Notes: generated by a model not told the origin, from the sequence alone. DNA of 64,000 nt from an uncultured virus (IMG/VR IMGVR_UViG_3300011339_000326) (IMGVR_UViG_3300011339_000326); one strand, 5' to 3'; counted from the stretch's first letter, positions 8,995 to 64,000 are shown. Numbers and translations: made by a program.

Positions 8995-8996
8995 CC

Positions 8997-12187: not shown

Positions 12188-12190
12188 TCT

Positions 12191-12430: not shown

Positions 12431-12440
12431 CACGACAACT

Positions 12441-18500: not shown

Positions 18501-21500
18501 AGTTTTGGGCTCGGCGAGAGAGCGTTGGGCGAGTGCCTTATTGCCAGCCTCAAGCATCCGCATGATTCCAGATTTCTGACCGCTAAGAAGTTTGTCAGTA
18601 GCCAGAACCAAGTCCATTATGGCGTTGTTTTCGTCTTTACCCAAGTTTAAGATTTTGCGGATAGCACCCACAAAACGATTGAAGAACGACGGACCACCTT
18701 CGGAACCTTTGGCACCAAGCAGGAAAGTCTGCATAGCCTCATCGCTCATGCCGTAAGCAAGGAACTCTTGTGGGCTAGTGAAAATGGAACCGTGCTCTTT
18801 GAGACTCCTGATCTCGTGGGGCAATTCTCCAGCAGCCCCAAGTTGATTGAACCGGGCTTCGGCGCTCTTCATAATGCCCAGAATGTCTTTAGACGCTTGA
18901 GTTATTGCGTTGGTTGTGGAGAACCCGCGTTCCAGTGCCTTAAGGCCCAAGTACAGCTTCTGGTTCGTAGCTGCGTGCAGTAGTTCGTGCAGTACAACTA
19001 CATTGCTAACCCCATGACCTGAACCAAAGCTAGCACCGCGCAGGTAGACAGTTCTTTCGCCCGTTGCATCATTCTGTACATACATACCACGGGCTTTGGC
19101 CCACTCTGCCGCCACACGGGGGGTCTTCAATCGGTCAGGTACTGGGCTGTCTTTTTCCAGCACGACAAAATTTACGTTACCGACAAAGCTCCTAATCCGC
19201 TGGGCGACTAGCTTCTGAAACGGGGTGCCAGTCTTGATGGTGTGCGTAATTGCCTGCATACCATTTGTAAACTTGGAGAACTTAGGATCAGCCTTGGCTA
19301 TAGACGCTGCACCCTCTATGCTCGGCAGGGTCTTGACACCTTTCTCGTCAGCAACTTCGCGCTTGAGAGTTTCAAGTTCCGCAGGGGTAAACCGATTGCT
19401 ATGTTTCTCCAATGTGGCCTTAATGGCTTTGCGTATGGATTCAGTGCCAGTGCCTGAAGCCCGCAGCTTGAGGAGTTCTTTATACGCAGCACGGCGGTTT
19501 GTCTGATTGCCGGTATTGATCGCGGATTCAAGCGCAGTGGTCTGCTTCCCCGCTGCACGCTTAGTTCGTTCGTTGGCTGCATTAGTGGCCTTGCGCTCCG
19601 TTGCCTTGCTAGCCTCTTGCTCAGGCGTCAGTACAAGGGAAGGCCGACCACGTTTCTTGATCTCAGCGATAGCAGCCTTAGCCTGCTCAACCACTTCGTT
19701 TGCCGGTGGGTTTACTACAGGGGCTTCGGCTTCGGTAGGGGTTTCGGCTATTGGGGGGTTATGTAGATTGAGTTCATCATCCGTAACTTTAAAAGTTTTT
19801 GTAGCTACGCGGTTTCCGTCTTCATCGTAGCCGTCAGGGTGTTGGCTTACATCGACCTCAAGCGTGTAACTTGTTGGCACGTAGCTAGCTTTATCCTGCG
19901 AGGGCTCTTCTACTGCGACTACTTTTGCGGGTGCTCCGGGGTACCGCATCTGAACAACTTCTGCACCGGGGTAGAAGTGCGTCCACGGCTTGCCATTAAA
20001 ATAAGAGGTCAGTCTGTCTTTTTTCTCTTCTACTGCAGCGGGCTGTGTTCCTTCTCCCACTGCAGGCCCCTCAGCAGTAGCTCCAGTTGGAACCACTCCT
20101 CCGGGTTCAGACTCCGTAAGTCCTTCGGTTGCGGCAACTCCTGCGGGTTGTTCAGCCACAGTAGTGCTTGTTCTATCTGGTTCACCGACAGACTCTGTAG
20201 GGACAGTGGCTGGGACATTTTCAACTTCCTCTCTCTCAACTCGTTGCGTTGCAATCTTGATCGCGTCTTCTTCCGTAGCCCCAGTAATGTCTTCGAGTTT
20301 TAATGCCAGTTCCTTGATCCGCGCTTCTCGCTCTGCGGGGACTACAGGGGCTTCGGTTTTAGTTTCAGTTGCTGGCGCTGGGGTAGCAGCACCCACCTCG
20401 CCTATTTCACCTATACCAATATCCCCAAGGCTAAATTCTTCACCGGGGGCCGCAGCACCCATCTCGCCTAGGTTTGAAATATCAATAGGAGTGTTATCGA
20501 ACCCGGAAGCGGAATCAAGACGAGGGTCTAAGTTCGGAAGGTCGATAGGAGTGTTATCGAACCCCTCCATTTCACCTATGTCAGTAGCAGCAGTTGTATC
20601 TTCACCGGGGGTAGCCGTACCAATATCCCCTAGACCAAAGTCTTCAGTTGCAACAGGGGCAGTAGCCTCAGGGGCAGGGGCAGGGGCAGGGGCAGTAGCC
20701 TCAGGGGTCAGGAACCCCTTGCTCCTAGCCAAGAGTTCAGCAAGTCCGTCGGTGCTTGTGTCTTGTGTATAGCCTTGTCGTTGCCCCGGAAGCATACCCT
20801 TTACAGTAGACGAAGTTTTCTGCAGCGCTTGCACACCAGCGGAATGACCGCCAGCCATAGCAATACCGGTTATCAGTCCTTGGGCTGCAGCTTTGTCTAT
20901 GCCCTCATCCCAAGGCTTACCCGTTGCAATATTCTTAAAAATCTGTTCTTGAGTGGACTGAGGCATTTCTTCAAGAAAGCCTTCTTTGGCAATCTCTTTG
21001 AAGAACTTAGTGAGGAACGGACCTTGCCCTACGCCTACACCTTTGACCCCAGCGGACCGAGCAGCAATATTTGTCTCCACATCCCCTATGCCGAATTTCT
21101 GCCCCACTTTGCCAGACACAGCACCAATGGCTGCAGTACCGAACCCCGCAGATAAGGCGGGTAGCACATACGCATTCCAATCCCTGCCCGACTGCCTACC
21201 AGCTTCTGCGATAGAACCCGCTGTTTGGGCGCCTTCAGCACCCCCAGCAACAGATGCAATTTTGAAAGCCTGCTTTTTAACCTTGTCGGTGATAAACTTC
21301 TCCGCCCTTGCACCACGTAGCCCTAGACTAGACGCTTCCGCTGCGGCCTTACCGACCAGAAAACGTACAAATTGACCACCTACAGCGCCAGCAGCTACTG
21401 TGCCGGGCAAGGATTCTGCAACACCTCCAATAAGCGCTGTAGGGTTGACTGCTAACGCCTTCAGAGTGTCTAGAAAGCCCACTGCTTCTTTTACGTTTTC

Positions 21501-22298
21501 GGTAGCATTCTGGCGAGTCAGTGACTGGAAGCCAGTCAGAAACTTATCCGTGCTCTTAGGGTTGTAACCTGCTTTAGCAAGCACGCGCCCCGCTGCACCG
21601 CCAGAAGTCAGATCAAGCAAGCCTACGTAGCTTTCACCAAATCCAACAACACCTTTAGCTACATCAAGTCCGGTGTCTGAAGCAAAGTCAGTAACGCCGT
21701 AATCTTCGTTTTTAGCACCCGTGCGTAACTTTTCTCTAGCTGCTTTTGCGTCGGCTTCTTTCTTAGCCCCGATAGCTACTAGCCTGTTAGCTTCTTTTGC
21801 AGCCTTACGATTTGCTTCAGTATCTGGAAGCTGCGGTATTTGCCTACCCTCAAGCACAGAACCTTTACGGTCCCCATCCCCAACAGGTACGCCAGTAGCC
21901 CAATCACGAACAGCATTCATGCCCGTGCCAAGAGTATCGAGAAAGCCCCCGGAAGCGGGGGCTGGAGCTTGAGCTTGGGCTACTGGCGCTTGGGCTACTG
22001 GCGCTTGGGCTACTGGCGCTTGGGCTACTGGCGCTTGGGTTACTGGGGCTTGGGCTACTGGGGCTTGGGCTACTGGGGCTACCGGTGCTGGGGTCGCAGA
22101 GGCCAAGGCTTCCGCTAACGTAAATTCTTGCGGGGCAACGGCTTGCGCAGCCATAGCCGGTTTTTGCCCACGACCTTTCATCGCCGCATCATAGTCCCCA
22201 CCGGGGTTGCGATCCTCCCACTCAGCGCGGGAAGGTATCTTAGTAGGAGCAACAGGGGCGGGGGTTAATACCTCCGCAAGGGTGAACTCTTTCGCCAT
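15528..22298 (-). CDS. 2256-aa large polyvalent / DNA-ejection protein with a zincin-like metallopeptidase motif
   Basis: Last gene of the virion operon; VVLHELLH...QEFLAYG; low-complexity linkers; helical C-terminal region. Confidence 0.75.
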   Translation of the reverse strand: MAKEFTLAEVLTPAPVAPTKIPSRAEWEDRNPGGDYDAAMKGRGQKPAMAAQAVAPQEFTLAEALASATPAPVAPVAQAPVAQAPVTQAPVAQAPVAQAPVAQAPVAQAQAPAPASGGFLDTLGTGMNAVRDWATGVPVGDGDRKGSVLEGRQIPQLPDTEANRKAAKEANRLVAIGAKKEADAKAAREKLRTGAKNEDYGVTDFASDTGLDVAKGVVGFGESYVGLLDLTSGGAAGRVLAKAGYNPKSTDKFLTGFQSLTRQNATENVKEAVGFLDTLKALAVNPTALIGGVAESLPGTVAAGAVGGQFVRFLVGKAAAEASSLGLRGARAEKFITDKVKKQAFKIASVAGGAEGAQTAGSIAEAGRQSGRDWNAYVLPALSAGFGTAAIGAVSGKVGQKFGIGDVETNIAARSAGVKGVGVGQGPFLTKFFKEIAKEGFLEEMPQSTQEQIFKNIATGKPWDEGIDKAAAQGLITGIAMAGGHSAGVQALQKTSSTVKGMLPGQRQGYTQDTSTDGLAELLARSKGFLTPEATAPAPAPAPEATAPVATEDFGLGDIGTATPGEDTTAATDIGEMEGFDNTPIDLPNLDPRLDSASGFDNTPIDISNLGEMGAAAPGEEFSLGDIGIGEIGEVGAATPAPATETKTEAPVVPAEREARIKELALKLEDITGATEEDAIKIATQRVEREEVENVPATVPTESVGEPDRTSTTVAEQPAGVAATEGLTESEPGGVVPTGATAEGPAVGEGTQPAAVEEKKDRLTSYFNGKPWTHFYPGAEVVQMRYPGAPAKVVAVEEPSQDKASYVPTSYTLEVDVSQHPDGYDEDGNRVATKTFKVTDDELNLHNPPIAETPTEAEAPVVNPPANEVVEQAKAAIAEIKKRGRPSLVLTPEQEASKATERKATNAANERTKRAAGKQTTALESAINTGNQTNRRAAYKELLKLRASGTGTESIRKAIKATLEKHSNRFTPAELETLKREVADEKGVKTLPSIEGAASIAKADPKFSKFTNGMQAITHTIKTGTPFQKLVAQRIRSFVGNVNFVVLEKDSPVPDRLKTPRVAAEWAKARGMYVQNDATGERTVYLRGASFGSGHGVSNVVVLHELLHAATNQKLYLGLKALERGFSTTNAITQASKDILGIMKSAEARFNQLGAAGELPHEIRSLKEHGSIFTSPQEFLAYGMSDEAMQTFLLGAKGSEGGPSFFNRFVGAIRKILNLGKDENNAIMDLVLATDKLLSGQKSGIMRMLEAGNKALAQRSLAEPKTSKAALTPEEEAEQLDKDASKAAKTTANSRAGEELGKAVSIQAALRDPIQIWRALSGAWDGMNDSARSRISNFFDLDAIARGPGERIPALQDVAKIMQQMSGMTQNILRSTSKIAEQTKRFYRDHPDARVAFENLVHTTTLAKYDPAKVGNTARNVPLDTAFAALPEKGQQLYRDLRDYYKAMNELQVHLVTENLDKLDIPDADRKRLIAGIREIYEKENRIEPYFPLMRHGDFILKIGKRGSANYLSMRFDTKAERERAAQNYADSQGVNVQELVQDGYIVKSQDVGGVELRRSIESSSELLKAGYAAIDAAPIGYAIDPTPVRAAMKDNLYQAYLASMPEGSTRKMFIHREGTAGFSSDVLRNLNSYGLKASKAYSKLKFGTPVRQALAAAERGLVGPEEKYRPFVTRAKEMVAEYLEPPNKTGIAQGAEQITDMVTKVSFIRNLTSWSSAMLQPADVVLKGTPILVGNHGPKALAVLSQRMKIWNQYGVVQKNADGTTTWRAPSIEFARGLTPEQRKAVRDMNAMYGVTNDTLANEVFSQARKTGSKLDSKWVENSKDAANTLIMGGLMHHGERLSREVMFLTSYDLYRGEGLPHAEAVHSAVQEVTEALGNYAAYGKPMIMRGAGGKLVTMYKFFPLITTKLLVNNFFRMLPLMNKEGKVAAATKFFGIMGTHLLAGGLTALPLFGVVMSIIGAAWAKWGKDPDAPAEMKDVDYLTWWKSVYMDKVFGSTHIADLLKTGVLNKLTGWDISSRISLNDMWFRELPHSKNLSETAMNLAWVLAGAGASTALDIAKGVQLGINGEYELALEKILPASISKLLIANRYATEGVEDTRGVKLLEKGKLPASAIAGQALGFRPAKAAEAQERGFKASAAVKTIEENKNKIAAEIKDSFRKSMDLSKPESYRQRFDDKFDEAVDKLRDFNVAYPKYKFEPGAISALIAADKKIKADLEKNAGVRVSPKNVSIVGDAVDSAIEALESYDKKEAKP
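21972..22090 (-). repeat. 15-bp tandem repeat (about 7 copies) encoding (APVAQ)n
   Basis: Repeated gcttgggctactggc units. Confidence 0.9.
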
Positions 22299-53415: not shown

Positions 53416-53815
53416 CGGGTTAGCGGGAGTTGGGCCAAATGTAACACAAAAATATATGGGGGTGGGGGTGTTTGATTTAGAAAAGTGACGGGGGGTGTTT
53501 CTGGGGCAGCAGTTGGCGGAATGGCTTGGTGGATTTTGTAGGGGGTGGGGGGTGTTTTGTTAGGAAAAATTTAAAAGTGAGTATCGGGTGTGCAACGCAC
53601 AGAGTATAGGTACCGGGTACCCTAAACAGCCCTTTCGGGGTGGTGGGGTCGTCGTCAGCGTCGCCATCTAAACTTGTTAGGCCGTACGGGGTCTGATTCC
53701 CTGTATTTATTGTCCACGCTTATTATGGTTTTTCGTCATACGATGTTATACATTAGACCCATCGATTCATACAGCACATTGCCTGTATGTCGATTAAACC
53801 TAGAAGGGGTTTATC

Positions 53816-54334
53816 ATGTTAGAAGTTATCGTCACGGTTCCTACATTGTCCGACATTGCTGTCCTGCGCACTAGGGCTGTAGATTCAGAAGCTAGTGTGT
53901 ACGGGGCGCGTAAAGACTACGCAAAGGGAATCAATGGGCTGTCCGATATCGCATGGTATAGAGACGGGGTTCAATTGCCTAAGGCAATAGCTGAGGAGAA
54001 GGCCGAATACTATAAGGCCTTGAAGGCCATCGGATACTCTAACCCCAGTAACGCGTGGAAGATGGTCAAGCAATACGCCTTCGAGGCCGCGAAGGCCGAA
54101 GGGTTATTTGGCGAAGTGGCCGAAACGGGCGAAGAGGGCGAAGAGGGCGAAGCTGGCGAAACCCGCGAAACCCGCTCGTTAACCCTTCGCATGGTCGAAG
54201 AGCTTACGACGCTCCATAAAGCGGCCATGAAAACTCGGGACAATAAGCCTGAGCAATACAGCCCGAAAGTGGCGCTCGCGCACCATCATGTGATCGAAGC
54301 ACTCAAGGCAATGGGTGTTGACGTAGGCATCTAA
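53816..54334 (+). CDS. First rightward early gene, hypothetical (acidic linker GEEGEEGE)
   Basis: AAGGGG SD; 172-aa ORF flanked by hairpins. Confidence 0.75.
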   Translation: MLEVIVTVPTLSDIAVLRTRAVDSEASVYGARKDYAKGINGLSDIAWYRDGVQLPKAIAEEKAEYYKALKAIGYSNPSNAWKMVKQYAFEAAKAEGLFGEVAETGEEGEEGEAGETRETRSLTLRMVEELTTLHKAAMKTRDNKPEQYSPKVALAHHHVIEALKAMGVDVGI

Positions 54335-54361
54335 GGGAATGGGGCAGGGTAAACCCTGCCC

Positions 54362-54374
54362 CTAACAATGTTAG
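54362..54374. repeat. CTAACAnTGTTAG palindrome copy (intergenic)
   Basis: cCTAACAATGTTAGg. Confidence 0.9.
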
Positions 54375-54468
54375 GTTTACCATGAAATAGCTACCCGGCG
54401 TGCGCAGGCCGTAAAACTGCGCAGGATGTTGGGTTCCTACTAACAAAGCCCTTCGTATGCTCACGCAG

Positions 54469-54499
54469 GCCCTGATCTCGTCGGATCGGGGCTTTTTTT
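54469..54499 (+). terminator. Rho-independent terminator
   Basis: GCCCTGATC...GATCGGGGC followed by T7. Confidence 0.85.
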
Positions 54500-54637
54500 C
54501 GTCCGCGATTTATGCCAGTTCCCACGTAGTTGCTCGGGGCTGGCGCTCGGCTTGCTGCTGCCGTGGAATCTGCAGGGGGTTGGTTTTGGGGCTTGGGCTT
54601 TTATGCCAGTTCCCATGTCCGAGTCCGGGGCTGCGGC

Positions 54638-54928
54638 CTACTCGATGTTCTGCTGTAACTGCAGCAGGGTTTGCCGTTCCCGGTCTAACACTGTTAGGCG
54701 ATGGGCAATGTAGTCGGCGACGGACTTGTTACCTTTGCGGAAGTTGCACTGCTTGCAAGCCACTACTAAGTTATCCGCATTGAACGCACCGCCTTTGGAT
54801 TCGGGGTGAACGTGGTCTATGTTTAGCTGAGTTTTGTAGAGCTTCGACTTGCCGCAGTATCTGCAAGTCCTTTTGTCCCGCGCTATCACATCATCGCGGA
54901 GTTGCTTGGCGGCTTCCCGCATGTTCAT
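54638..54928 (-). CDS. HNH endonuclease (McrA-like)
   Basis: RDKRTCRYCG...IDHVHPESKGG...NLVVACKQCN.RKG; AGGGG SD before ATG 54928. Confidence 0.85.
   Translation of the reverse strand: MNMREAAKQLRDDVIARDKRTCRYCGKSKLYKTQLNIDHVHPESKGGAFNADNLVVACKQCNFRKGNKSVADYIAHRLTVLDRERQTLLQLQQNIE
54685..54697. repeat. CTAACAnTGTTAG palindrome copy inside the HNH gene
   Basis: tCTAACACTGTTAGg. Confidence 0.85.
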
Positions 54929-54953
54929 CTTGTTACCCCTTAAACTGCTTAGC

Positions 54954-54982
54954 AGTTTAACCGTGGATTTACTGAAAGTCAA
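54954..54982 (-). promoter_or_regulatory. Sigma70 promoter of the HNH gene, overlapped by a 21-bp palindrome
   Basis: TTGACT-17 bp-TAAACT on the - strand. Confidence 0.75.
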
Positions 54983-55014
54983 GCCTTTTTGGTAGTATTT
55001 CGCAGCATCGGGGG

Positions 55015-55027
55015 CTAACAATGTTAG
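55015..55027. repeat. CTAACAnTGTTAG palindrome copy (intergenic)
   Basis: gCTAACAATGTTAGg. Confidence 0.9.
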
Positions 55028-55039
55028 GTTTTGGGGCTT

Positions 55040-55412
55040 TTGCGTTACGTTTTTAGGGGTATTGTTACTTTTCACATAGTGAAAAGGCTGGGAACCCGCA
55101 TGGATGCTAGGTTCCTTGCTATTAAGTTAGATGTTACGTGTTACAACGAGGGTATGAAGGTTGGAAAATCTGCAAGAGCGGCAAAACGAGGGGCAACGAG
55201 CCAGCAAGAGTATTTTGTATTACGCACTTTCCAGCGCCATACCCTTTTTTACTCAAAACATTATAATTTATATATATAAAAGTATCCTAACCTATTGATT
55301 TCATTGGGTTTTTTACGTTACGTTTTTTTCATTTTTTCTCCCTTTGTTACAACAGCCTTTTGTAACGCACCCTTGCCCATCCCCGACACGTGTTATAATC
55401 TATATAGTTACA
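55040..55412. other. Candidate replication origin (GTTAC repeats plus AT-rich core)
   Basis: Multiple GTTAC/GTAAC; TTATAATTTATATATATAAAA at 55261. Confidence 0.45.
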
Positions 55413-55431
55413 CCACAACCAAAGGATTGCC

Positions 55432-55749
55432 ATGAAGCCCAAGTTACGACTGACAAGTCTGATCTCCACCGTTTCCTCACAACAAATGAGCGAAGCCATA
55501 GAAGTTCTGAACTGCAGTAAATCGGACGCAATCCGTGAGGCAATGTCGGTGCACGCCTACAAAGCCAAGTCGTTGCATGTACCGCCGAAGTTCCAACCCC
55601 CCAAGACGTACGCAGACAGGTTGTTCATAAATGCAGTCGTCGATGCGGAGACGAAGCAGGACTACGAGATACTCGCAAGACGCTACGGCGTACCTGTATC
55701 CGAGCTAGTCCTACGCTGCCTAAGTGCATACGTGCTGCGGAGCCAATAA
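55432..55749 (+). CDS. Putative tandem ribbon-helix-helix DNA-binding protein
   Basis: Two RHH-like units (CSKSDAIREAM; YGVPVSELVLRCL); TGnTATAAT promoter at 55391. Confidence 0.6.
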   Translation: MKPKLRLTSLISTVSSQQMSEAIEVLNCSKSDAIREAMSVHAYKAKSLHVPPKFQPPKTYADRLFINAVVDAETKQDYEILARRYGVPVSELVLRCLSAYVLRSQ

Positions 55750-55798
55750 CACCCCAAAACCTTTACTCTTACCCCAAGTGCAACGCTGCCGCTTACTC

Positions 55799-55827
55799 TT
55801 GCATAGTACATAACAATGTGATACACT
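55799..55827 (+). promoter_or_regulatory. Sigma70 early promoter
   Basis: TTGCAT-17 bp-TACACT with extended TGn. Confidence 0.75.
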
Positions 55828-55877
55828 ATAGGCTCAGGTGGGAAATCTCCTACCTGCAACCCGGCAAGCAAGCCAAC

Positions 55878-55890
55878 CTAACAATGTTAG
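55878..55890. repeat. CTAACAnTGTTAG palindrome copy (5' UTR)
   Basis: cCTAACAATGTTAGg. Confidence 0.9.
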
Positions 55891-55912
55891 GTCTAACAGC
55901 AAAGGAAGCATC

Positions 55913-56290
55913 ATGAGCAAGCAAATCAACCAAAACAGTATCAACGTCCTTATGCGCCACGTGCGTCATACCCTCGCACCCAACACAGAGGTGCGCCAAG
56001 TCAGCGCATCGAGCGAGGGCGTAGGGTTCTACATGGACTCCCGGCATGGGGAGAAAACCCGTGATCTAGTGCACTTTTCGTGCACACCAACAGACCCCGA
56101 AGATGGGCAAGCCGAAGGCGGCTGGAATATCCTTGCCCGACTAGATGGCGGGCAGTTTGTCGGCGAGTGGGTTGCACAGGGCGAAAGCCTCAACGCAGAC
56201 TGGTACGCTGCATGGTTCAGCGTAATGGCTAACTGCAGCGGGGCTAACTACTGGCTGCGTTTCGTCGAGGTCGAGGAGGTGCTGGAATGA
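55913..56290 (+). CDS. Hypothetical early protein
   Basis: AAGGA SD before ATG 55913. Confidence 0.65.
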   Translation: MSKQINQNSINVLMRHVRHTLAPNTEVRQVSASSEGVGFYMDSRHGEKTRDLVHFSCTPTDPEDGQAEGGWNILARLDGGQFVGEWVAQGESLNADWYAAWFSVMANCSGANYWLRFVEVEEVLE

Positions 56291-56412
56291 AGCCCAAGAC
56301 CAAATCCGACCTAACATTGTTAGGCATGACGCCAATACAACGCGCCGAACGCATCGTGTTCCTCTTGTGCCTCATTGTGCTGGCACTCGATCTTTTATTT
56401 TGGAGGCCATGA
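56287..56412 (+). CDS. 41-aa membrane peptide ending LDLLFWRP
   Basis: Translated by hand; ATGA overlaps at both ends. Confidence 0.65.
   Translation: MKPKTKSDLTLLGMTPIQRAERIVFLLCLIVLALDLLFWRP
56311..56323. repeat. CTAACAnTGTTAG palindrome copy inside the micro-gene
   Basis: cCTAACATTGTTAGg. Confidence 0.9.
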
Positions 56413-56648
56413 TGGGACAAGTAAAAGCCCTTCTCTGCACCTGCAGTCACTGCGGTGACGATATTGACCCTCGGCGAGTAACCCTAGGGTATCGGCTCTG
56501 CCTGTGGTGCGGTGAGGAAGCCGCAACCCAGACCCGGAAGGGCTGGACCGTGGTGCAGGAATACACCAAGGGTAACTATCAGTTCATTACCCCTAGCAGC
56601 GTAGCAGTAACACTTAAGCAGACTAACCCGAAGAACCTGAGGACATAA
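56409..56648 (+). CDS. C4 zinc-finger protein (DksA/TraR-like finger)
   Basis: CSHCGDDIDPRR..LGYRLCLWC. Confidence 0.65.
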   Translation: MMGQVKALLCTCSHCGDDIDPRRVTLGYRLCLWCGEEAATQTRKGWTVVQEYTKGNYQFITPSSVAVTLKQTNPKNLRT

Positions 56649-56650
56649 GC

Positions 56651-56899
56651 ATGACAACGACCACAACAAAACGACCCTACATCACCCAATACTTTGAGGC
56701 ACCCAATGCCTCGGGTAAGAAGCCAGCATCCACCGGGTATGCGGCAACCCTGCGCGGTGCGCGTAGGAACATGGCCGTGCGCATCGTGCTCGGCCAATAC
56801 GGCTTGGCTATAGTAGCCGAGAGGGAGAAGGTAACGACAACGCCCCTGTGCGTCATGCGCAGGACAACCACAGGCATAGATATCAAGGAGGGTGTATGA
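56651..56899 (+). CDS. Hypothetical protein
   Basis: GAGGA SD. Confidence 0.6.
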   Translation: MTTTTTKRPYITQYFEAPNASGKKPASTGYAATLRGARRNMAVRIVLGQYGLAIVAEREKVTTTPLCVMRRTTTGIDIKEGV

Positions 56900-57132
56900 A
56901 ACTCAGGGGGTTGAAGAAGGTACGGCACGGGATGGTGAACCGTGCCGACTGGATCGCAGCCGACAACGACACGAGGATGTATTTCATCCGAGGGGTCAAG
57001 CCATGCAAAACCTACTCACCTTGGTGCAGTGACTGCAATGCGGTCAAGTTTAGGCGGGACATGGCTCGGTTCCCCTACTCCATCGTGGAGTTCAACGAGT
57101 ACGAGGACAAGCAACAGGAGAAAACGGAATGA
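56896..57132 (+). CDS. Hypothetical protein (C...CSDC)
   Basis: AGGAGG SD, coupled. Confidence 0.6.
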   Translation: MKLRGLKKVRHGMVNRADWIAADNDTRMYFIRGVKPCKTYSPWCSDCNAVKFRRDMARFPYSIVEFNEYEDKQQEKTE

Positions 57133-57338
57133 TCACCAACACATTCATCACCGAGGATGGCAAGTACCACATCGAGTCACTCGGCAACGGGTGGGCGTAC
57201 TCAGTCACCTGCCAGCGTACAGGTAACAACTTCTTTGTGCAGGACCACGATGCCGACACCCTGCAGCAGGAGACGAGCAACTTCGAGTGCACTGGTGCAC
57301 TGGACAACTATATGGAGGCCCTTGGGGGAGAAGCATGA
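57129..57338 (+). CDS. Hypothetical acidic protein
   Basis: AGGAG SD, coupled. Confidence 0.65.
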   Translation: MITNTFITEDGKYHIESLGNGWAYSVTCQRTGNNFFVQDHDADTLQQETSNFECTGALDNYMEALGGEA

Positions 57339-57583
57339 GTAACCGAAAACAAATCGACACAAGTGGACCACTCACCGAGGCAGAGCAGAAGTCAATGAGG
57401 CAGAAGGTGGACCTGATTCTGTCCCTTGCAGGCTCAGACCCTGCAACGATGCTAGCTGCTATTAGCTATGCGCTGGTAAATGCAGCAGCTAAGTGTGACG
57501 TCACGCCGATGAGCGTGATCAGTGTATTGGCCCAGATGTTTGACGACACAGAGGAGAGTGAAGATGAAGATCAAGACGAGTGA
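57335..57583 (+). CDS. Hypothetical protein with an acidic tail
   Basis: ATGA coupling at 57335. Confidence 0.6.
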   Translation: MSNRKQIDTSGPLTEAEQKSMRQKVDLILSLAGSDPATMLAAISYALVNAAAKCDVTPMSVISVLAQMFDDTEESEDEDQDE

Positions 57584-57959
57584 CCTAACATTGTTAGCCC
57601 TTGATTGGGCAGTGGCTGAGTCCGAGAAGATGGATATTGAGATACGCCCAGCGGGTGCGTGTGGACGGCCTTTGTACGTGCTTGCTGCTGAGGCTGGCCG
57701 TACACCATGGACATGGACTCCGACAACAAGCTGGCACCAAGGTGGGCCGATTATTGATCGGGAGAAGATCGCAACGTCCCCGCTGCCTAATAACTCATGG
57801 AGGGCCTATGCGCCGATGGGCACTCGCGTTCTGAATGGACGGGAGATATTTAGCTGGCAACACAAAGGGAATGGCCCAACCCTACTCATCGCAGCCATGC
57901 GCTGCTATGTGGCCTCAAAACTCGGCGACACCGTTGACATACCAGAGGAGTTGGTATGA
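57564..57959 (+). CDS. DUF2591/NinX-like protein
   Basis: ALDWAVA...P.TSW.QGGPIIDRE.I...GPT.LIAAMRC.VASKLG..V.IPEEL. Confidence 0.8.
   Translation: MKIKTSDLTLLALDWAVAESEKMDIEIRPAGACGRPLYVLAAEAGRTPWTWTPTTSWHQGGPIIDREKIATSPLPNNSWRAYAPMGTRVLNGREIFSWQHKGNGPTLLIAAMRCYVASKLGDTVDIPEELV
57585..57597. repeat. CTAACAnTGTTAG palindrome copy inside the DUF2591-like gene
   Basis: cCTAACATTGTTAGc. Confidence 0.9.
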
Positions 57960-58216
57960 GTAAATGGATAAAGGCCAATAAGTATTGCGAGTACGTTGAC
58001 TTCGACAAGGAGTTGTACCGACTGCCCGACAAGGGCAACACGAGCGTGGACATACGGCTGACGTTCAACACAGACATGCGCACGTGCTACTACACGATCA
58101 GCTTGAAGAACGACGATGGCGATACGCGTGATTGGCAGCAAGACCACCGCGTACCTTGGGCCGTGGGCGTTGCAATGCTCGGTGACGAGGTGGAAGTGCC
58201 CGAGGAGTTGCAGTGA
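57956..58216 (+). CDS. Hypothetical protein sharing the LGDEVEVPEEL tail with the previous gene
   Basis: Coupled ORF. Confidence 0.65.
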   Translation: MSKWIKANKYCEYVDFDKELYRLPDKGNTSVDIRLTFNTDMRTCYYTISLKNDDGDTRDWQQDHRVPWAVGVAMLGDEVEVPEELQ

Positions 58217-58365
58217 TCAGGTTCTTTGTGTCTGGCTGGAGTAGCCGCTTCAGCCTGTGGCACTCAGAGGTCATCGAGGCCAAGAGCAAGGCTGCGGCCA
58301 AGGAGCGGTTCGTCGCCCTGCGGCCTACGCTGAAACATGTCAAGGTTTTAATTTTAGGAGATTAG
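58213..58365 (+). CDS. 50-aa hypothetical protein
   Basis: GTGA overlap; translated by hand (..EVIEAKSKAAAKERF..). Confidence 0.55.
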   Translation: MIRFFVSGWSSRFSLWHSEVIEAKSKAAAKERFVALRPTLKHVKVLILGD

Positions 58366-58366
58366 C

Positions 58367-59269
58367 ATGTATGGAAATGGAAGTATGCGCGAGATCAAGC
58401 GTATAACGACATACGAGGAAGCGAAGCTGCGGTACGAGCAGGTCAAGCCGATCAGGGGCAGGGCTGGAGATGTGCGCCCATTGGGCGAGCGAAGGAATGA
58501 CAACTTCAGGATAGCCAAGCGAGTGAACCCACTAAGCGGCATCACAGCCTATCAGTGCATCCTGTACTCGACCCCGGTGGTGGAGTTCAAGCCCGACGGT
58601 GATGTGGAGATCGTTATGGGTGGGTGGGCCACGACTGCAACCCGGACATTCATAGAACGACTGCTGCACCTTAGCTGTTACTCAAAGAACGACAGTAGTG
58701 TGCTGTGTCTTGGCAATAAAGCCGAGGTTGTGCTGCACCCGACCAAGACCACAGTGATCCGTCGGCTGGAGGTCTATCCGTACACGTGGGAACTAACATC
58801 GAGCGAGCCGGTGTACGAAACGCAGTTGAACAAGAAGAAGGCTAACAATGTTAGGGCGCAGTACAGCGAGTTCGAGAAGTACCTGAAGGCAATGGTCAAC
58901 CTGCGCGAAGAAACACGGATGGAAGGTTTCATGAGGGGCAAGTACGTCTACAAACGTATCACGTTCACCAAAACCGAGTTCATCGAGGCGGATTTGGGCG
59001 GCATGGTGCAGGTGGAGCTAATGCGGAACGACCAACCGGAGGAGAGCAAGCACAGCAACTTCTACAAAGCAGCGCTTGGGATTGCTATATCTATTAGAGG
59101 AGGGTTTACGGCCGTTAGGGGGGGTCCCGAGATGTACTTGCAGTCAAACACTTTGCTGCCCAAGTTCCGCGAGATTGTGTACCGACACCATAAGAACGAG
59201 GTGTTCGAGAAGGTGCTGCTGCCCGTAGGTAAGGCAGCGAACAAGAAGTACGACAGTTGGGTCAAGTAA
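58367..59269 (+). CDS. Hypothetical 300-aa early protein
   Basis: AGGAG SD; VKPIRGR..VRPLG.RR. Confidence 0.75.
   Translation: MYGNGSMREIKRITTYEEAKLRYEQVKPIRGRAGDVRPLGERRNDNFRIAKRVNPLSGITAYQCILYSTPVVEFKPDGDVEIVMGGWATTATRTFIERLLHLSCYSKNDSSVLCLGNKAEVVLHPTKTTVIRRLEVYPYTWELTSSEPVYETQLNKKKANNVRAQYSEFEKYLKAMVNLREETRMEGFMRGKYVYKRITFTKTEFIEADLGGMVQVELMRNDQPEESKHSNFYKAALGIAISIRGGFTAVRGGPEMYLQSNTLLPKFREIVYRHHKNEVFEKVLLPVGKAANKKYDSWVK
58842..58854. repeat. CTAACAnTGTTAG palindrome copy inside the CDS
   Basis: gCTAACAATGTTAGg. Confidence 0.9.
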
Positions 59270-59291
59270 AGAGTAAAGGTTGTGCTTACGC

Positions 59292-59320
59292 TTGACATAG
59301 GTACTATATTGTGTTACAAT
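59292..59320 (+). promoter_or_regulatory. Strong sigma70 promoter
   Basis: TTGACA-17 bp-TACAAT with extended TGn. Confidence 0.85.
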
Positions 59321-59357
59321 GTAGTTTGATTAGCGGTAGTGTGGTTAGGGCTAGCCC

Positions 59358-59370
59358 CTAACAATGTTAG
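59358..59370. repeat. CTAACAnTGTTAG palindrome copy (5' UTR)
   Basis: cCTAACAATGTTAGt. Confidence 0.9.
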
Positions 59371-59414
59371 TAGTGGGCGTCTTGCCCGGTTAGTGTTATT
59401 TTAAGGAGTTAGAA

Positions 59415-60479
59415 ATGGCTGAAGTCACATTTGGTAAGAGCATCACGCTCAAGCAAGCTGCGGACCTGATTTGCAGCAACCCGGAAACCCGCTTCCTCTT
59501 GCAGGGCGAGCCCGGTATCGGCAAGTCCAGTCTGCTGGAAATGATCAGCGCACGCATGGGTTTTGCTCATTCGTATATTGACGTACCCAATATGGATTTG
59601 GGCGACATTGCGATGCCGGTGATTGATCACGAGACCAAGACAACCCGGTATTACCCGAATGCCCGCTTTAATGTGCACGAGGGCAAGCCTGTGGTGGTGA
59701 TGCTTGACGAGTTCACCAAGGGTGCCGACCCGGTGAAGAACATGCTGCACCCTATGCTAGAGAAGGCAAACCCACGGCTGGGTGACATCAGCTTGAACAA
59801 GGACTGCATCGTGTTCTTGACGGGCAACCTGTCTACCGACGGTGTGGGCGACAACCTGAAAGCACATAGCCGTAATCGTTTAGTCCCGGTGACGATCAGC
59901 AAACCCAATGCCGAGCAGTGGATTGAGTGGGCTATCAACAAGAACATCGAGGCCGAGGTGATTGCATGGGTGAGTCGGTTCCCTCAGGTGCTTGCATCGT
60001 ATACGGACGGGGGGCAGAACGACAACCCGTACATCTACAACCCTAAGCGCAACCAGAATGCGTTCGTGTCGCCCCGCTCACTGGAGACTGCATCTAACAT
60101 TGTTAGGACCCGCAAGCAGAACGACCCGGATGCGGTGATCGCGGCACTCAGTGGTGCTATCGGTGAGTCAGGTGCACGGGACATGCAGGCGTACATCGAG
60201 TTTGCCGACCAGCTACCAACGTGGGAGGCGACGGTGAGTAAGCCCGACACAGCGCCTGTGCCTACTAGCCCCGGTGCATGCTCAATCGTGGTGTTTGGTG
60301 CTATCTCCCGTGTGACCAAGGAGACGATCACGCCGTTCATGCAGTATCTGGAGCGGTTCGAGCCTGAGTGGCAGGCAGTGTTCGCAGTCAACATCGCCAA
60401 GGCCCCGGCCAAGCAGTCCATTGCGTTCAGTTGCAAGGCGTTTGCAACGTGGGTTGCCAAGAACCAAGACCTACTGTAA
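59415..60479 (+). CDS. MoxR/dynein-related AAA+ ATPase
   Basis: GEPGIGKS, MLDEF, TGN, NR, SPRS. Confidence 0.88.
   Translation: MAEVTFGKSITLKQAADLICSNPETRFLLQGEPGIGKSSLLEMISARMGFAHSYIDVPNMDLGDIAMPVIDHETKTTRYYPNARFNVHEGKPVVVMLDEFTKGADPVKNMLHPMLEKANPRLGDISLNKDCIVFLTGNLSTDGVGDNLKAHSRNRLVPVTISKPNAEQWIEWAINKNIEAEVIAWVSRFPQVLASYTDGGQNDNPYIYNPKRNQNAFVSPRSLETASNIVRTRKQNDPDAVIAALSGAIGESGARDMQAYIEFADQLPTWEATVSKPDTAPVPTSPGACSIVVFGAISRVTKETITPFMQYLERFEPEWQAVFAVNIAKAPAKQSIAFSCKAFATWVAKNQDLL
60094..60106. repeat. CTAACAnTGTTAG palindrome copy inside the AAA+ gene
   Basis: tCTAACATTGTTAGg. Confidence 0.9.
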
Positions 60480-60494
60480 TACAAGGAGTTAAAC

Positions 60495-61700
60495 ATGGAA
60501 GCAGAACGTAAATTGCAGAAGGCGAAGATCGCCTTGATGCGCAACAAGAACTTTGCCCTGTTGCAGGGCGTGATGATGATTGGCAAGACGCGAGTGGATG
60601 AGCACACGCCGACTGCCTGTACTAACGGACGGGATGAGGTGTACGGGCGTGAGTTCGTGACCAAGCTGCGTGATCCTGAGTTGTGCTTTGTGATTGCCCA
60701 CGAGGCAGGGCACAAGATGTACCGGCACATGACCACGTGGAAGAAGCTGCACGACGAGGACCACCGGCTAGCCAACATTGCCTGTGACCACGTGATCAAC
60801 CTGATGCTCAAGGAGTTGGACCCGCAAGGTGTGGTGATAGCTATGCCTGTGTACCGGGATGGTCCACACAAGGGCAAGCAGATGGGCATGTGCGATGCGC
60901 GGTTCAAGAACATGAACAGCAAGCAGGTGTTCGACATACTGAAAGAGGAGAAGAAGTCGGGCGGCGGAAGCGGTGAGAGTGGCGACGGTGGCGTCGACGA
61001 GCACGACTGGGATGGTGCCGAGGGTATGACCGACGAGGAGAAGCGCGAGCTAGTGCGAGACATTGACCAAGCTATACGGCAGGGGTTGATGGCGCACAAC
61101 AAGCAGGTGGGTGAGGGTGCGGGTGGACTAGACCGCGAGTTGCAGGAGTTGCTTGAGCCCAAGGTCAACTGGCGTGAGGTGCTGCGTGACTACGTGAAGT
61201 CCATGTGTCACAGCAAGGACGCGAGTAGCTGGCGCAGGGTTAACCGTAGGTTCCTATCCACAGGTGTTTACATGCCGAGCATGATCGGTGAGAAGGTGGG
61301 GCATCTGGTGGTTGCGATAGACACATCAGGCTCCATTGGGCAGGAGGCGTTATCCGAGTTCCTGTCCGAGGTTAAGGGTATCGCCGAAGAGGTAAGCCCT
61401 GAGCTTGTGGACTTGATCTATTGGGACAGCGCAGTGGCTGCACATGAGACCTACACGGAGTCCGAGGTACCTAACATTGTTAGCTCTACCAAGCCACGAG
61501 GCGGTGGGGGTACATCACCTAGCTGTGTGTCGGACTACCTGAAGAAGGAGCAGATCGTGCCTCAGTGCGTGATCGTGCTGACTGACGGATACGTGGGTAG
61601 TGACTGGGGTAACGACTGGACTGCGCCCGTTATGTGGGCCATCGTAGGAGGTAATGATGTGGTGGCACCGAACGGCAAAACAATTCACATTAAAGACTAA
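60495..61700 (+). CDS. DUF2201-type metallopeptidase plus VWA domain protein
   Basis: TACTNG, HEAGH, N.ACD.VIN; MIDAS DTSGS, GGGGT, LTDG. Confidence 0.88.
   Translation: MEAERKLQKAKIALMRNKNFALLQGVMMIGKTRVDEHTPTACTNGRDEVYGREFVTKLRDPELCFVIAHEAGHKMYRHMTTWKKLHDEDHRLANIACDHVINLMLKELDPQGVVIAMPVYRDGPHKGKQMGMCDARFKNMNSKQVFDILKEEKKSGGGSGESGDGGVDEHDWDGAEGMTDEEKRELVRDIDQAIRQGLMAHNKQVGEGAGGLDRELQELLEPKVNWREVLRDYVKSMCHSKDASSWRRVNRRFLSTGVYMPSMIGEKVGHLVVAIDTSGSIGQEALSEFLSEVKGIAEEVSPELVDLIYWDSAVAAHETYTESEVPNIVSSTKPRGGGGTSPSCVSDYLKKEQIVPQCVIVLTDGYVGSDWGNDWTAPVMWAIVGGNDVVAPNGKTIHIKD
61471..61483. repeat. CTAACAnTGTTAG palindrome copy inside the VWA gene
   Basis: cCTAACATTGTTAGc. Confidence 0.9.
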
Positions 61701-61710
61701 GGAGGACGAC

Positions 61711-61956
61711 ATGGTGGTTATAGAGTTTGGCTACAACACCAGTAGCTTAGTGATGTCGCCTAAGGATGCGCTGGCGATGGCCGAGATCATGCAGCGTGCG
61801 GAGAAGTACGAGAAGAAGTACCGCCCCGGAAGTGGCGGGGGCGAGAGCAGTTACACGTACCACGTGTGGACTAACCCCGATGAGATCACCATGAAGCTCA
61901 TCAGCGACGACACCTACCGCATGGCAAAGCTGGCGGGTAAATCGGAGAAGGAATGA
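61711..61956 (+). CDS. Hypothetical protein
   Basis: AGGAGG SD before ATG 61711. Confidence 0.7.
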   Translation: MVVIEFGYNTSSLVMSPKDALAMAEIMQRAEKYEKKYRPGSGGGESSYTYHVWTNPDEITMKLISDDTYRMAKLAGKSEKE

Positions 61957-62393
61957 TGCTAGACCCAGAACTGCAGATCAAACTGCTGATAGCTGAACGA
62001 CCTTGGGAGCAAGAGTGCAAACACTTCGAGGAGTGGATTGATAAAGGTACGGGGTACACGTGCACGATCTGGCGACACCCGACGCTAGGCCATCTGTGTG
62101 GATACGTGGGGATACCCAAGGGGCACCGCTGCTGTGGGCTTGGGTACAACGACATGAATGACATCGAGGTTCATGGTGGGCTGACGTACTCAGAGGTAGA
62201 CGATAAGCGGCAGTTGCATGTGTTTGGATTCGATGCTGGTCACGGTGGAGATTATTCACCGGGGCTGACGGTCACTCTGCTGAGGGTTACCGGGGAGTTC
62301 AATAGAGTGAGCAGAGGCCAAACGTACCGTACGTGGGCGTACATGAAAGAGCAAGTGTTGAGTTTGTGTAATCAATTGAAACTGAAGGAGTAA
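61953..62393 (+). CDS. Conserved phage protein (GHLCGYVG...VHGGLTYS...GFDAGH)
   Basis: Motif pattern; coupled. Confidence 0.75.
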   Translation: MMLDPELQIKLLIAERPWEQECKHFEEWIDKGTGYTCTIWRHPTLGHLCGYVGIPKGHRCCGLGYNDMNDIEVHGGLTYSEVDDKRQLHVFGFDAGHGGDYSPGLTVTLLRVTGEFNRVSRGQTYRTWAYMKEQVLSLCNQLKLKE

Positions 62394-62397
62394 TGAA

Positions 62398-63249
62398 ATG
62401 AGTATTAGTGCATCAGCAGTGTTAGTGGAACTGAACATCAGTGTGTGGCCTGCGTCGAAGATCGACCGGGAGACAACTGAGCTAACCAATACAAACGCAG
62501 GGGCAGTGCGAGACGCATCGCAGACCAAGAAGAACCTGTTCGCAGGTACGGGTTTGCGCAAGGACATCGAGAAGTTCGCTGCTCGGGCTCGGCTGTATCA
62601 CAACCTGCACACATTGCCGTGGGCTGACAAGGGTGAGCGCATGCTGCCGACCAAGTTGTTCATGGAGTACAAGCAGACGATTAATGGGTTCGAGCGGACG
62701 TTCGACGTTATGTGCCAGAACTTCTTTGTGCAGTACCCGCGTCTGGTATCTGAAGCCCCTACCAACCTAGGTGCACTGTACAAGGCAGGTGACTACCCTG
62801 ACCTTGAGGAGGTCAAGCAGAAGTTCGGGTTCCGTCGCTCAGTCAACCCCATGCCTGACTCCGGCGACTTTCGCTTGGACATACCAGCAGAGGACTTGGA
62901 TGATGTGCGAGCAGAGTTCCGCGACAAGTTCGACGAGCGGCTGAAGGAGGCTATGCGTGCACCGTGGGACAAGCTGCACTCAATGTTGCTAGGTGTATCT
63001 GACAAGCTGAAGGAGGGCAACGAGGGGGACAAGAAGCGATACCACGACTCACTGCTGACCAACCCACTGGAGTTGTGTGCACTGCTGACTAAGCTCAACG
63101 TGACCAACGACCCGCTGTTGGAAGAGGCACGGCGACAGGTAGAGCTAACAATGTTAGGGGCTAACATGGACAACATCAAAGAGGACGCTGACTCACGCAG
63201 CGAGTTGAAGTCCAAGGTCGATTCGATCTTGGGTAAGTTTAATTGGTAA
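62398..63249 (+). CDS. DUF3150-like helical protein
   Basis: LV.LNISVW, TLPW.D.G.R.LP, LNVTNDP.L; usual neighbour of AAA+/VWA genes. Confidence 0.6.
   Translation: MSISASAVLVELNISVWPASKIDRETTELTNTNAGAVRDASQTKKNLFAGTGLRKDIEKFAARARLYHNLHTLPWADKGERMLPTKLFMEYKQTINGFERTFDVMCQNFFVQYPRLVSEAPTNLGALYKAGDYPDLEEVKQKFGFRRSVNPMPDSGDFRLDIPAEDLDDVRAEFRDKFDERLKEAMRAPWDKLHSMLLGVSDKLKEGNEGDKKRYHDSLLTNPLELCALLTKLNVTNDPLLEEARRQVELTMLGANMDNIKEDADSRSELKSKVDSILGKFNW
63145..63157. repeat. CTAACAnTGTTAG palindrome copy inside the CDS
   Basis: gCTAACAATGTTAGg. Confidence 0.9.
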
Positions 63250-63259
63250 GGAGAGACAC

Positions 63260-63784
63260 ATGGCAACGAAAAAGAAGACAACCGAGGCACCGGCACCGGT
63301 AACACCGATGACCCCCAAGGAGATAGCCTATAAGCTGCGGGCTAAGTTCATTGTGGCTGCTACCGCAGTAGCTAACGATGCAGTGGCCGACCAAGTAGCG
63401 GAAAGCATCATCGCTGACCTGAACGCACAGAAGCGTGCGGTGACGCTAAGCCTGTTGGGTCTGACTGACAAGTGGGGCAGGTGGGAGGTAGAGAGCCGCG
63501 ATTCCCCCATCACTAAGCACTTGACAGAAGCGGCTAGAGCAACGGTTATGCAGTGGGTCAACGATGCTGTCGCCGAGGTGCTGACCGAGGAGCGCAAGGT
63601 GAAGGTCAAGAACACCGTTAAGAATGCAATGAAGGCGCATATAGAGGGCATCGTGAACGATAGCGTACACGACTACACCATTCGGAAAAAAGCCGAGGGA
63701 CTGGTTGAGACGATGCTGCAGAAAGCCGCAGATGAGGTACGCGACGAACTTGGACTGGAATTCAAAGTAGGAGCAAAGAAATGA
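63260..63784 (+). CDS. Hypothetical protein
   Basis: AAGGAG SD. Confidence 0.7.
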   Translation: MATKKKTTEAPAPVTPMTPKEIAYKLRAKFIVAATAVANDAVADQVAESIIADLNAQKRAVTLSLLGLTDKWGRWEVESRDSPITKHLTEAARATVMQWVNDAVAEVLTEERKVKVKNTVKNAMKAHIEGIVNDSVHDYTIRKKAEGLVETMLQKAADEVRDELGLEFKVGAKK

Positions 63785-64000
63785 GCATAACAAACAACGC
63801 GATGGATTTGCCTAACGTACACGCAGCCGAAACCAAAGAGCCTGTTGGTGCGTACAAGGTAACGTCCATCCTCGCCACAGTCATATGGGAACTGGCATTG
63901 AAAAACCCGATGTGGTCGTTCAAAGTAACAAACTTTAGCTGGGCAGTAGACGACAAACAACAAAGAACGATGGTGGCAAACAAGTTCGTAGTAAGCCACA
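63781..64000 (+). CDS. Hypothetical protein, 3'-truncated by the window edge
   Basis: ATGA overlap, AGGAG SD; open to the end (MSITNNAMDLPNV...). Confidence 0.65.
   Translation, partial: MSITNNAMDLPNVHAAETKEPVGAYKVTSILATVIWELALKNPMWSFKVTNFSWAVDDKQQRTMVANKFVVSH

Follow-up and report, generated by a model that had tools for sequence, protein, structure and literature searches.

A dispersed palindrome array in the early arm of an uncultured phage and its candidate reader, the product of the first early gene

Why should one short palindrome be repeated along a single arm of a phage genome, within genes as well as between them, and which protein, if any, reads it? The question is posed by a 64,000-nucleotide stretch of DNA from an uncultured water phage of ~64 kb (IMGVR_UViG_3300011339_000326; the whole stretch, all of which was analysed, is referred to here as the window), in which the 13-base palindrome CTAACANTGTTAG is dispersed around the first gene of the early arm. 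As a protein identical to the product of that first gene is recorded on a 64,534-base contig, the window represents almost the whole genome, and its ends probably lie ~534 bases apart on a circular map. For analysis it was joined end to start, and the open reading frame (ORF) running across the junction (63781 to 281), which is not real as built, was used for clustering only. An earlier note on this DNA, made from the sequence alone, had listed 13 copies of the palindrome and proposed that a dimeric protein coats the early arm.

An exact scan returns exactly 13 copies of CTAACANTGTTAG in the window, starting at the same 13 coordinates as in the earlier note (4837, 6951, 54362, 54685, 55015, 55878, 56311, 57585, 58842, 59358, 60094, 61471 and 63145), with 0 matches in 100 dinucleotide-preserving shuffles. 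Allowing up to two mismatches gains just two further places, 41633 and 53668 (a total of 15 versus 2.7 expected), so the motif is nearly all-or-none. All 13 exact copies lie on the plus-strand arm (53816–64000, continuing through 1–15287), eleven of them within 54362–63157; the whole-window scan finds 0 exact copies in the minus-strand structural arm (15528–53415), and the copy-free gap spans 6964–54361. The array is real and is confined to the early arm, a restriction that had been noticed by eye and that is shared by the relatives described below. The site is a perfect palindrome, each match being read on both strands. Twelve of the 13 copies have A or T at the centre and one (54685) has C; C precedes it in 8 of 13 copies and G follows it in 10 of 13, and beyond that one base the likeness between the flanks of different copies ends. 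Copies within genes and between genes are identical in sequence. Seven of the 13 lie safely in genes (54685, 57585, 58842, 60094, 61471, 63145 and 6951); the in-gene copies reported previously are thus real, but one fewer than the eight that had been counted. The spacing between copies grows with distance (Spearman rho 0.86), as had also been suspected.

The array is not peculiar to the window. A scan of IMG/VR with the 15-base form of the site found at least 192 motif-bearing stretches, and many of the contigs hold several clustered copies. Matches in bacteria and archaea occur as a single copy per locus in all 80 listed of at least 120, and no description of this array was found in the literature searched. 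Ten further complete genomes (G002–G011, 61–66 kb) were rotated to a common origin at the start of the large terminase gene (terL), and their sites were counted as the 11-base-pair (bp) core with spacers of 1–3. In the five measured (G002–G006), GC content is 43–54% and conserved genes share 64–78% DNA identity with the window. Nine of the ten carry 11–27 sites, which with the window makes ten array-bearing genomes. The sites in these genomes lie within the first 1–23 kb past the strand switch at terL and the small terminase gene (terS), the exception being a lone core match at 54986 in G002, and the gaps between neighbouring sites increase with distance in all ten (rho 0.44–0.88). Whether relatives carry palindromes of their own with the same positional gradient, as the earlier note had asked, is thereby answered: arrays with the same thinning occur in ten complete genomes.

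Site types were compared across 83 sources, made up of 80 loci around homologues of the early-arm AAA ATPase (the best 80 of 331 IMG/VR stretches) together with the window, G002 and G003. A class was assigned, by thresholds of our own choice, where at least three sites were present and 80% were of one type. On this basis, 36 sources belong to TAACA-N1-TGTTA (spacer-1, the class of the window), 26 to TAACA-N2-TGTTA, 6 to TGACA-N2-TGTCA and 1 to TAACA-N3-TGTTA; 7 are mixed and 7 have fewer than three sites. One complete relative, G005, combines 6 N1 and 11 N2 sites. As the half-site stays constant while the gap varies (N1, N2, N3), or is itself changed to TGACA, the palindromes appear to be paired half-sites read by a dimer, and the dimeric binder proposed earlier gains from this comparison, a two-fold symmetric reader being well suited to half-site spacing that varies between genomes. 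The true site classes are finer than the four used, as some relatives vary the inner or outer site positions: L255 has the form CTAAC-TAT-GTTAG, L263 also belongs among these relatives, and L247 and L250 do not retain the outer C and G.

The in-gene copies indicate what is being conserved. They fall at the same codons in orthologues, while the surrounding synonymous positions vary freely. In a synonymous-identity test restricted to unique sequences from spacer-1 loci, the motif is present in 26 of 28 sequences for the ATPase gene (synonymous identity 0.90 at the motif codons versus 0.54 gene-wide, with 0 of 294 other windows in the gene as high), in 25 of 28 for the DUF2201 gene (0.87 versus 0.52; 0 of 337) and in 24 of 27 for a gene of 283 amino acids (aa) (1.00 versus 0.56; 0 of 259). 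The ATPase gene permits a further comparison, since the peptide at its site, SNIVR or SNIVK, occurs in every site class. The spelling that forms the site (TCT AAC ATT GTT AGR or AAG) was found in 30 of 33 sequences from spacer-1 loci without the unrelated first gene described below and in 2 of 2 from spacer-1 loci with it, compared with 1 of 23 from spacer-2 loci, 0 of 6 from TGACA loci, 0 of 5 from loci with no array and 2 of 4 from mixed loci; 9 of 82 sequences missed the search pattern and were left uncounted. The synonymous positions at this site (site 9, at 60094) are frozen only in spacer-1 genomes. The site codons are kept by genomes of the matching class only, and the ATPase protein has no need of them. 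To judge by codon choice, the sites are maintained by selection acting on the DNA, not on the peptide, a view that the earlier note had already taken and for which it had suggested the check on synonymous conservation.

Which protein, then, reads the sites? Several products of the window were considered and set aside. The tandem ribbon-helix-helix protein (55432) that had been put forward has no homologue in five array-bearing complete relatives, and the helix-turn-helix protein (12191), also put forward, is present in all 11 complete genomes, including the one without an array; neither proposal found support. A ribbon-helix-helix-like gene of 79 aa (4389–4628; isoelectric point (pI) 10.4) is likewise found in 11 of 11 complete genomes, the array-less one included, as well as in array-less loci, and its strand region does not follow site class. 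A TraR-like zinc ribbon (56409–56648) occurs in array-less loci too. Pfam scans of 69 window proteins yielded no MazE/AbrB, ParB or other DNA-binding family, and the Pfam and PHROG scans of window proteins gave no ParA, ParB, KorB or MatP-like protein.

The gene that follows the sites most closely is the first plus-strand gene past the strand switch (53816–54334), which encodes a 172-aa protein of an orphan family and is our candidate palindrome reader. The comparison covered the 82 sources with a called ATPase, 25 of which end before the first-gene position. An array, at 0.67–2.08 sites per kb, is present in every one of the 49 loci whose first gene belongs to the 172-aa family. Six loci have an unrelated first gene of ~170 aa, whose homology to the 172-aa family is unconvincing (probability 0.1–17%); these have 0–0.84 sites per kb, and three of the six have at most one site. 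Two sources have neither type. The clearest single case is L218, in which TerL and the ATPase are 96% and 93.5% identical to those of the window; its first gene is replaced by the unrelated gene and its ATPase site has drifted at five positions, all of them synonymous, so that loss of the first gene is accompanied by site decay. The array-less complete genome, G007 (the L223 contig), carries the unrelated first gene in two tandem copies, and no ORF family present in at least 8 of the 11 complete genomes is missing solely from it. The sequence GGGTTAACCC was considered as an alternative palindrome of G007 and rejected, as four copies (rotated positions 85, 3840, 6414 and 20355) are too few for an array. 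Just 3' of the unrelated 170-aa gene in L216 (1038–1620) and L218 (6532–7078) are 7–9 copies of a repeat spaced by ~19 bp and containing AAAAAATAGGCA, which may be the cognate site array of the unrelated first-gene module.

Genes of the 172-aa family are themselves bracketed by sites: one lies within 200 bp upstream in 45 of 51 copies (with modes at ~15–40 and 115–155 bp) and one within 100 bp downstream, also in 45 of 51 (median 33 bp), an arrangement that suggests autoregulation. In G002 (rotated 2440–2952 and 3893–4420) and L243 (5273–5848 and 6532–7023) there are two tandem copies of the first gene, each bracketed in this way.

The first gene follows not only the presence of the sites but also their type. 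The family has two deeply split branches, and the deepest branch of its tree (Shimodaira–Hasegawa-like approximate likelihood ratio test (SH-aLRT) support 99) separates 26 spacer-1 rows and 1 spacer-2 row from 17 spacer-2, 4 TGACA, 2 mixed and 1 spacer-1 rows. The connector, measured as the residues that separate the alignment columns of E61 and W81, is 19–21 residues long in 27 of 27 proteins from spacer-1 genomes, 22–39 residues in 22 of 22 from spacer-2 genomes (18 TAACA and 4 TGACA) and 22 residues in 2 of 2 from mixed genomes. Its length also resolves the two misfits of the tree: N1 sites go with 21 residues in the misfit on the spacer-2 branch, and N2 sites with 24 residues in that on the spacer-1 branch.

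The N-terminal domains of the two branches are homologous (hhalign probability 97.9%, E = 3.6e-13 over 91 columns), and the predicted architecture is that of a four-helix domain at the N terminus joined by an acidic, disordered linker to a helical hairpin at the C terminus. The predicted local distance difference test (pLDDT) value of the model is 77 for the whole protein and 76 for the N-terminal domain alone. Foldseek searches with either gave no PDB match at E ≤ 0.001; the top VIA Z scores of 6.6, to helical hairpins and the KaiA four-helix domain, are within the noise for helical proteins; and profile searches of PDB sequences returned nothing meaningful. The ESM Atlas yielded only unnamed viral clusters, with DUF3102 (0.84) and repressor c (0.81) below lead level. 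A homodimer model scored 0.54, compared with 0.00 for the best control; in the benchmark of this score, the mark was reached by 20 of 30 one-chain-pair proteins versus 1 of 23 proteins solved as single chains. The runs agreed in at least 79% of contacts, with a partner pLDDT of at least 75. The models support the view that the first-gene product dimerises. Among the candidate binders listed in the earlier note, the 172-aa protein is thus the one that follows the sites in presence as well as in type, and it is predicted to pair with itself.

Our leading explanation, which we put at somewhat better than even from the sequence comparisons above, is that the palindromes form an operator or roadblock network, read by a dimer of the first-gene product, for the early shut-off of the early block. 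Each TAACA half-site would be contacted by one subunit of the dimer, whose geometry would determine the gap, and the CTAACAATGTTAG duplex would be the expected target of the protein. Once occupied, the array would restrain or stop host RNA polymerase along the early block: the first gene would control itself through its bracketing sites, and further sites would act after promoters, at gene ends and inside genes over the first 10–18 kb. That the first-gene protein binds DNA, that its binding represses or blocks transcription and that this arm is expressed first are steps that we infer. Across the ten genomes, a promoter-like element ends 5–70 bp upstream of 22 of 169 sites, versus 3.6% of random positions, and sites at gene ends are exemplified in the window by 54362, after a hairpin, and 4837, over a stop codon.

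A number of observations weigh against this explanation. Pfam, PHROG and PDB sequence searches gave no match to the first-gene protein, which has no recognised DNA-binding fold or family, and its pI of 5.5 and acidic linker are unpromising for a DNA-binding protein. A simple operator role does not cover all sites, since 87% are not near a promoter-like element. The connector rule was found after the data had been seen, and the 51 proteins include 8 duplicates, leaving 43 different ones; IMG/VR contigs also overlap in origin, which weakens the case for the first gene further. Site class is clustered on every gene tree: counted with FastTree on loci with a first gene only, it changes 4 times on the first-gene tree versus 4–7 times on those of eight other genes (4 for p300, from 27 rows only, 5 for p100, 6 for the ATPase and p290, and 7 for the other four). 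Because of this clustering, the co-variation rests on few independent transitions, perhaps three or four, and the trees are too weak to serve as sole proof. Finally, L219 has the unrelated first gene yet six sites in 4 kb, and loci that lack the first gene still have an intact DUF2201 site. Both cases of retention could be due to a recent swap of modules, or else to a different reader.

That a different reader is at work, whether a DNA-binding protein of the host or a further conserved product of the phage such as the helix-turn-helix (12191) or ribbon-helix-helix-like (4389) protein, with the first gene linked to the sites by descent or position, strikes us as rather unlikely. It would account for the want of a recognisable DNA-binding fold in the first-gene protein, for the clustering of site class on all gene trees and for L219, which retains sites without a gene of the 172-aa family. 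Cellular proteins with specificity for the palindrome core do exist: MtvA, a MazE-like antitoxin encoded on a plasmid, was found in gel shifts to bind the same 11-bp core, TAACATTGTTA (PMC11826091). Against such a reader, site classes differ between phages with ~80% identical ATPases, and N1 and N2 sites are mixed in one genome; a host reader is hard to fit to a class that changes between close phage relatives. The two phage proteins named are encoded in the array-less genome as well, the strand region of the second does not follow class, the 69 proteins of the window scanned with Pfam offer no MazE/AbrB, ParB or other DNA-binding family, and the bacterial and archaeal loci are single-copy in the 80 listed of at least 120 matches. 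An account without any protein reader, in which the copies follow from conserved peptides, belong to a mobile palindromic element or have to do with recombination or restriction, is scarcely credible. Several in-gene copies do encode conserved peptides (SNIVR, PNIVS, LTML and ANNVR), but the same peptide takes other codons wherever the site class differs, so that the codon tests come near to refuting this account, and the gene-wide synonymous figures argue against general codon bias. The copies share only one flanking base, those between genes are the same as those within them, and the spacing classes behave as paired half-sites.

Other explanations keep a dedicated reader and change its task. 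The first-gene protein could bind the sites for a different job, such as ratcheting in the DNA end, shielding it from nucleases or restriction, or marking it as self against superinfecting kin; control of transcription would then be a secondary matter, and we regard this as unlikely. By analogy with lambda-type packaging, the terminase-adjacent end would be packaged last and enter first. The first gene adjoins the terS-proximal G-rich repeats, site density peaks at the terS-proximal end and drops with distance in 10 of 10 genomes, in-gene sites are kept as strongly as intergenic ones, 87% of all sites lie away from promoter-like elements, and a quick turnover of class among close relatives is what conflict between phages would be expected to produce. 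A role in DNA entry meets the difficulty that the protein must exist before it can pull in its own coding DNA. A centromere-like or domain-organising array, which would segregate, condense or position phage DNA in the manner of parS/ParB, the KorB operator or matS/MatP, we consider highly improbable. In its favour, matS and the KorB operator are likewise 13-bp odd palindromes, the copies here are scattered over ~10 kb with some in genes, and the predicted reader is dimeric; on the other side, scans of the window proteins gave no ParA, ParB, KorB or MatP-like protein, no gene for an integrase, plasmid maintenance or a protelomerase was seen, and gene control better fits an array that brackets the first gene and often follows promoters. 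A bolder form of the proposal, which we offer as doubtful, is that the first protein is a DNA-binding dimer, of a fold not so far linked with DNA binding, that marks the first-entering 10 kb by lineage. The classes would then be immunity groups of lytic phages, serving self shut-off, kin exclusion or the entry and guarding of DNA, and the connector would tune the reading distance by 1 bp.

The individual sites can be followed from the strand switch onwards. A degenerate 14th site, CTAAACTTGTTAG (53668–53680; two mismatches), lies 136 bp upstream of the first gene, where relatives also have a site, ~115–155 bp before theirs. It is perfect (CTAACATTGTTAG) in one 7282-base contig of the same phage from each of three public runs (X1, X5 and X7), the contigs of which continue through the strand-switch region; the differences are 53672 A>C and 53673 C>A, with AC in the window and CA in the public contigs. 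As these runs may be the source samples of the window DNA, the perfect form is taken as a within-population variant and not as independent support, and the window's reading at 53672–53673 may be an operator variant or an assembly slip. Site 1 (54362–54374) is 28 bp 3' of the first-gene stop and is adjoined by a GC-rich hairpin on the plus strand, GGGGCAGGG-TAAA-CCCTGCCCC (54341–54362). Site 2 (54685–54697), the sole C-centred copy, is read in frame LTVL within an HNH endonuclease gene (54641–54927; PF01844, E = 1.1e-13; the ORF is listed to 55075, with a likely ATG at 54927), which lies on the minus strand, opposite to the rest of the early arm, and looks like an inserted homing-type gene. Site 3 (55015–55027) is intergenic. 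Site 4 (55878–55890) lies in a 5' untranslated region (UTR), as the earlier note had placed it, 35 bp before the likely ATG at 55913, and site 5 (56311–56323) lies between genes or in an ORF of fewer than 50 aa.

Further along, site 6 (57585–57597) is read in frame LTLL in a NinX-like gene (57522–57959), and site 7 (58842–58854) in frame ANNVR in a 300-aa gene (58367–59269), with the full site at identical codons in 5 of 5 aligned orthologues. Site 8 (59358–59370) is in the 5' UTR of the ATPase gene, 38 bp after a sigma-70-like promoter on the plus strand (TTGACA-17-TACAAT, 11 of 12 positions; 59292–59320). The next three sites are those of the synonymous-identity test: site 9 (60094–60106; codons SNIVR) in the AAA ATPase gene (59415–60479), site 10 (61471–61483; codons PNIVS) in the DUF2201 metallopeptidase/VWA gene (60495–61700) and site 11 (63145–63157; codons LTML) in the 283-aa gene (62398–63249). 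Site 12 (4837–4849), previously described as beside a hairpin or terminator, does mark a gene end, but it actually contains the TAA stop of the DUF3310 gene (4625–4840), which comes directly after the ribbon-helix-helix-like gene (4389–4628). Site 13 (6951–6963; codons PNIVR), in the family A DNA polymerase gene (5618–7444), is present only in the window among six genomes aligned.

The remaining gene content is that of a phage with two opposed arms. Besides the polymerase, the plus arm encodes an SNF2 helicase, a DUF927 primase-helicase, the helix-turn-helix protein (12191), a PD-(D/E)XK nuclease, the NinX-like protein and many small unknowns. It also encodes the AAA ATPase (PHROG 1297) followed by the DUF2201 metallopeptidase/VWA protein, a pair (59415–61700) that is kept in the early arm of every relative. 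The C4 zinc-ribbon protein (56409–56648) has a weak DUF7577 match and is conserved in 11 of 11 complete genomes; its motif resembles that of TraR/DksA, and as the TraR type binds RNA polymerase and not DNA, the protein may act on host RNA polymerase. The minus arm holds the small and large terminase subunits, portal, capsid, tail parts and endolysin, together with a 2256-aa polyvalent protein (15528–22298, minus strand) with an LPD39 domain and a DarB-like C-terminal part. Polyvalent proteins of this kind are thought to be injected along with the DNA. Its gene contains seven copies of the 11-mer CCAGTAGCCCA near 21892–22066, most of them 15 bases apart. Between terS and the first gene (53460–53565) stand three G-rich repeats of the form GGGGGTGTTT, which may be the terminase recognition (pac or cos) region.

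PHROG (89) and Pfam (69) scans of window proteins revealed no integrase, repressor or partition family, which does not by itself prove a lytic lifestyle. Nor was a plasmid-maintenance or protelomerase gene seen in the window, so nothing points to a stably carried state. The cultured-phage collection contains no nucleotide relative, near or distant, and no tblastn match to the first-gene protein; its nearest TerL matches, 47–57% identical, are those of DSL-LC04, two pelagiphages and cyanophages, and the first 40 kb of DSL-LC04 have another layout and lack the palindrome. Several relatives are flagged in IMG/VR as having direct terminal repeats, which may merely reflect circular assembly.

If the first-gene product does read the sites, then a large group of uncultured river, lake and marine phages would control a whole gene block by means of one orphan protein and a dispersed palindrome, and a DNA-binding fold that sequence and fold searches fail to recognise would be added to those known. 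The N1, N2, N3 and TGACA classes would offer a natural series for the evolution of a dimer's reading distance and base preference, in which connector length already predicts spacing in 49 of 49 cases, by a rule found post hoc. Coding sequence, the array also shows, can carry regulatory sites at a cost in codon choice, visible as class-specific frozen synonymous positions.

How does the array compare with known systems? The phiC31 repressor c acts on 17-bp conserved inverted repeats (CIRs), present in many copies in the early region of a temperate Streptomyces phage, and the present array is similar in having an inverted-repeat site, many copies, an early region and, as proposed here, one phage regulator. 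The likeness of the first-gene protein to repressor c (PF25746) is limited to an Atlas feature score of 0.81, below lead level, and Pfam searches with 15 family members at E ≤ 10 gave no PF25746. The matS/MatP system and the RK2 KorB operators also use 13-bp odd palindromes, with ~10–25 copies over a defined DNA domain and a dimeric reader; the matS site is GTGACRNYGTCAC, and MatP combines a ribbon-helix-helix, a four-helix bundle and a coiled coil. The matS likeness seen in the earlier note goes no further than 9 of 13 compatible positions: CTAACANTGTTAG differs at 4 of the 12 fixed ones, and scans of the window proteins gave no MatP-like protein; the domain covered here is, moreover, a phage early operon. 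The array is outside the matS/MatP and ParB/KorB systems. The operator of MtvA on plasmid pPAD8 has the identical 11-bp core TAACATTGTTA, bound in gel shifts by a small dimeric regulator, but it is a single autoregulatory site (PMC11826091), and no MazE-like protein was found among the window proteins scanned with Pfam; the match of the cores may be a coincidence.

The closest comparison is with the operators and stoperators of Cluster A mycobacteriophages. Stoperators are asymmetric, orientation-dependent 13-base sites found genome-wide at promoters and in short intergenic spaces, and their L5 gp71-type repressor is a monomer with an N-terminal helix-turn-helix and a stoperator domain, encoded by temperate phages (PMC9283540). 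In both cases, many copies of one 13-base site are dispersed in a phage genome, a single phage protein would stop initiation as well as elongation, and site and protein change together between relatives. The window's site, unlike the stoperators so described, is a perfect palindrome and is not orientation-dependent, and its copies are confined to the early arm with at least 7 of 13 in genes. The candidate reader differs as well, being a predicted dimer without a helix-turn-helix from a window in which no lysogeny gene was found; fold searches of the first-gene protein listed no helix-turn-helix or stoperator domain, a result that is not decisive alone. The array of CTAACANTGTTAG thus departs from a Cluster A stoperator network in site symmetry, in spread and in its candidate reader, yet that is the known system that it works most like.

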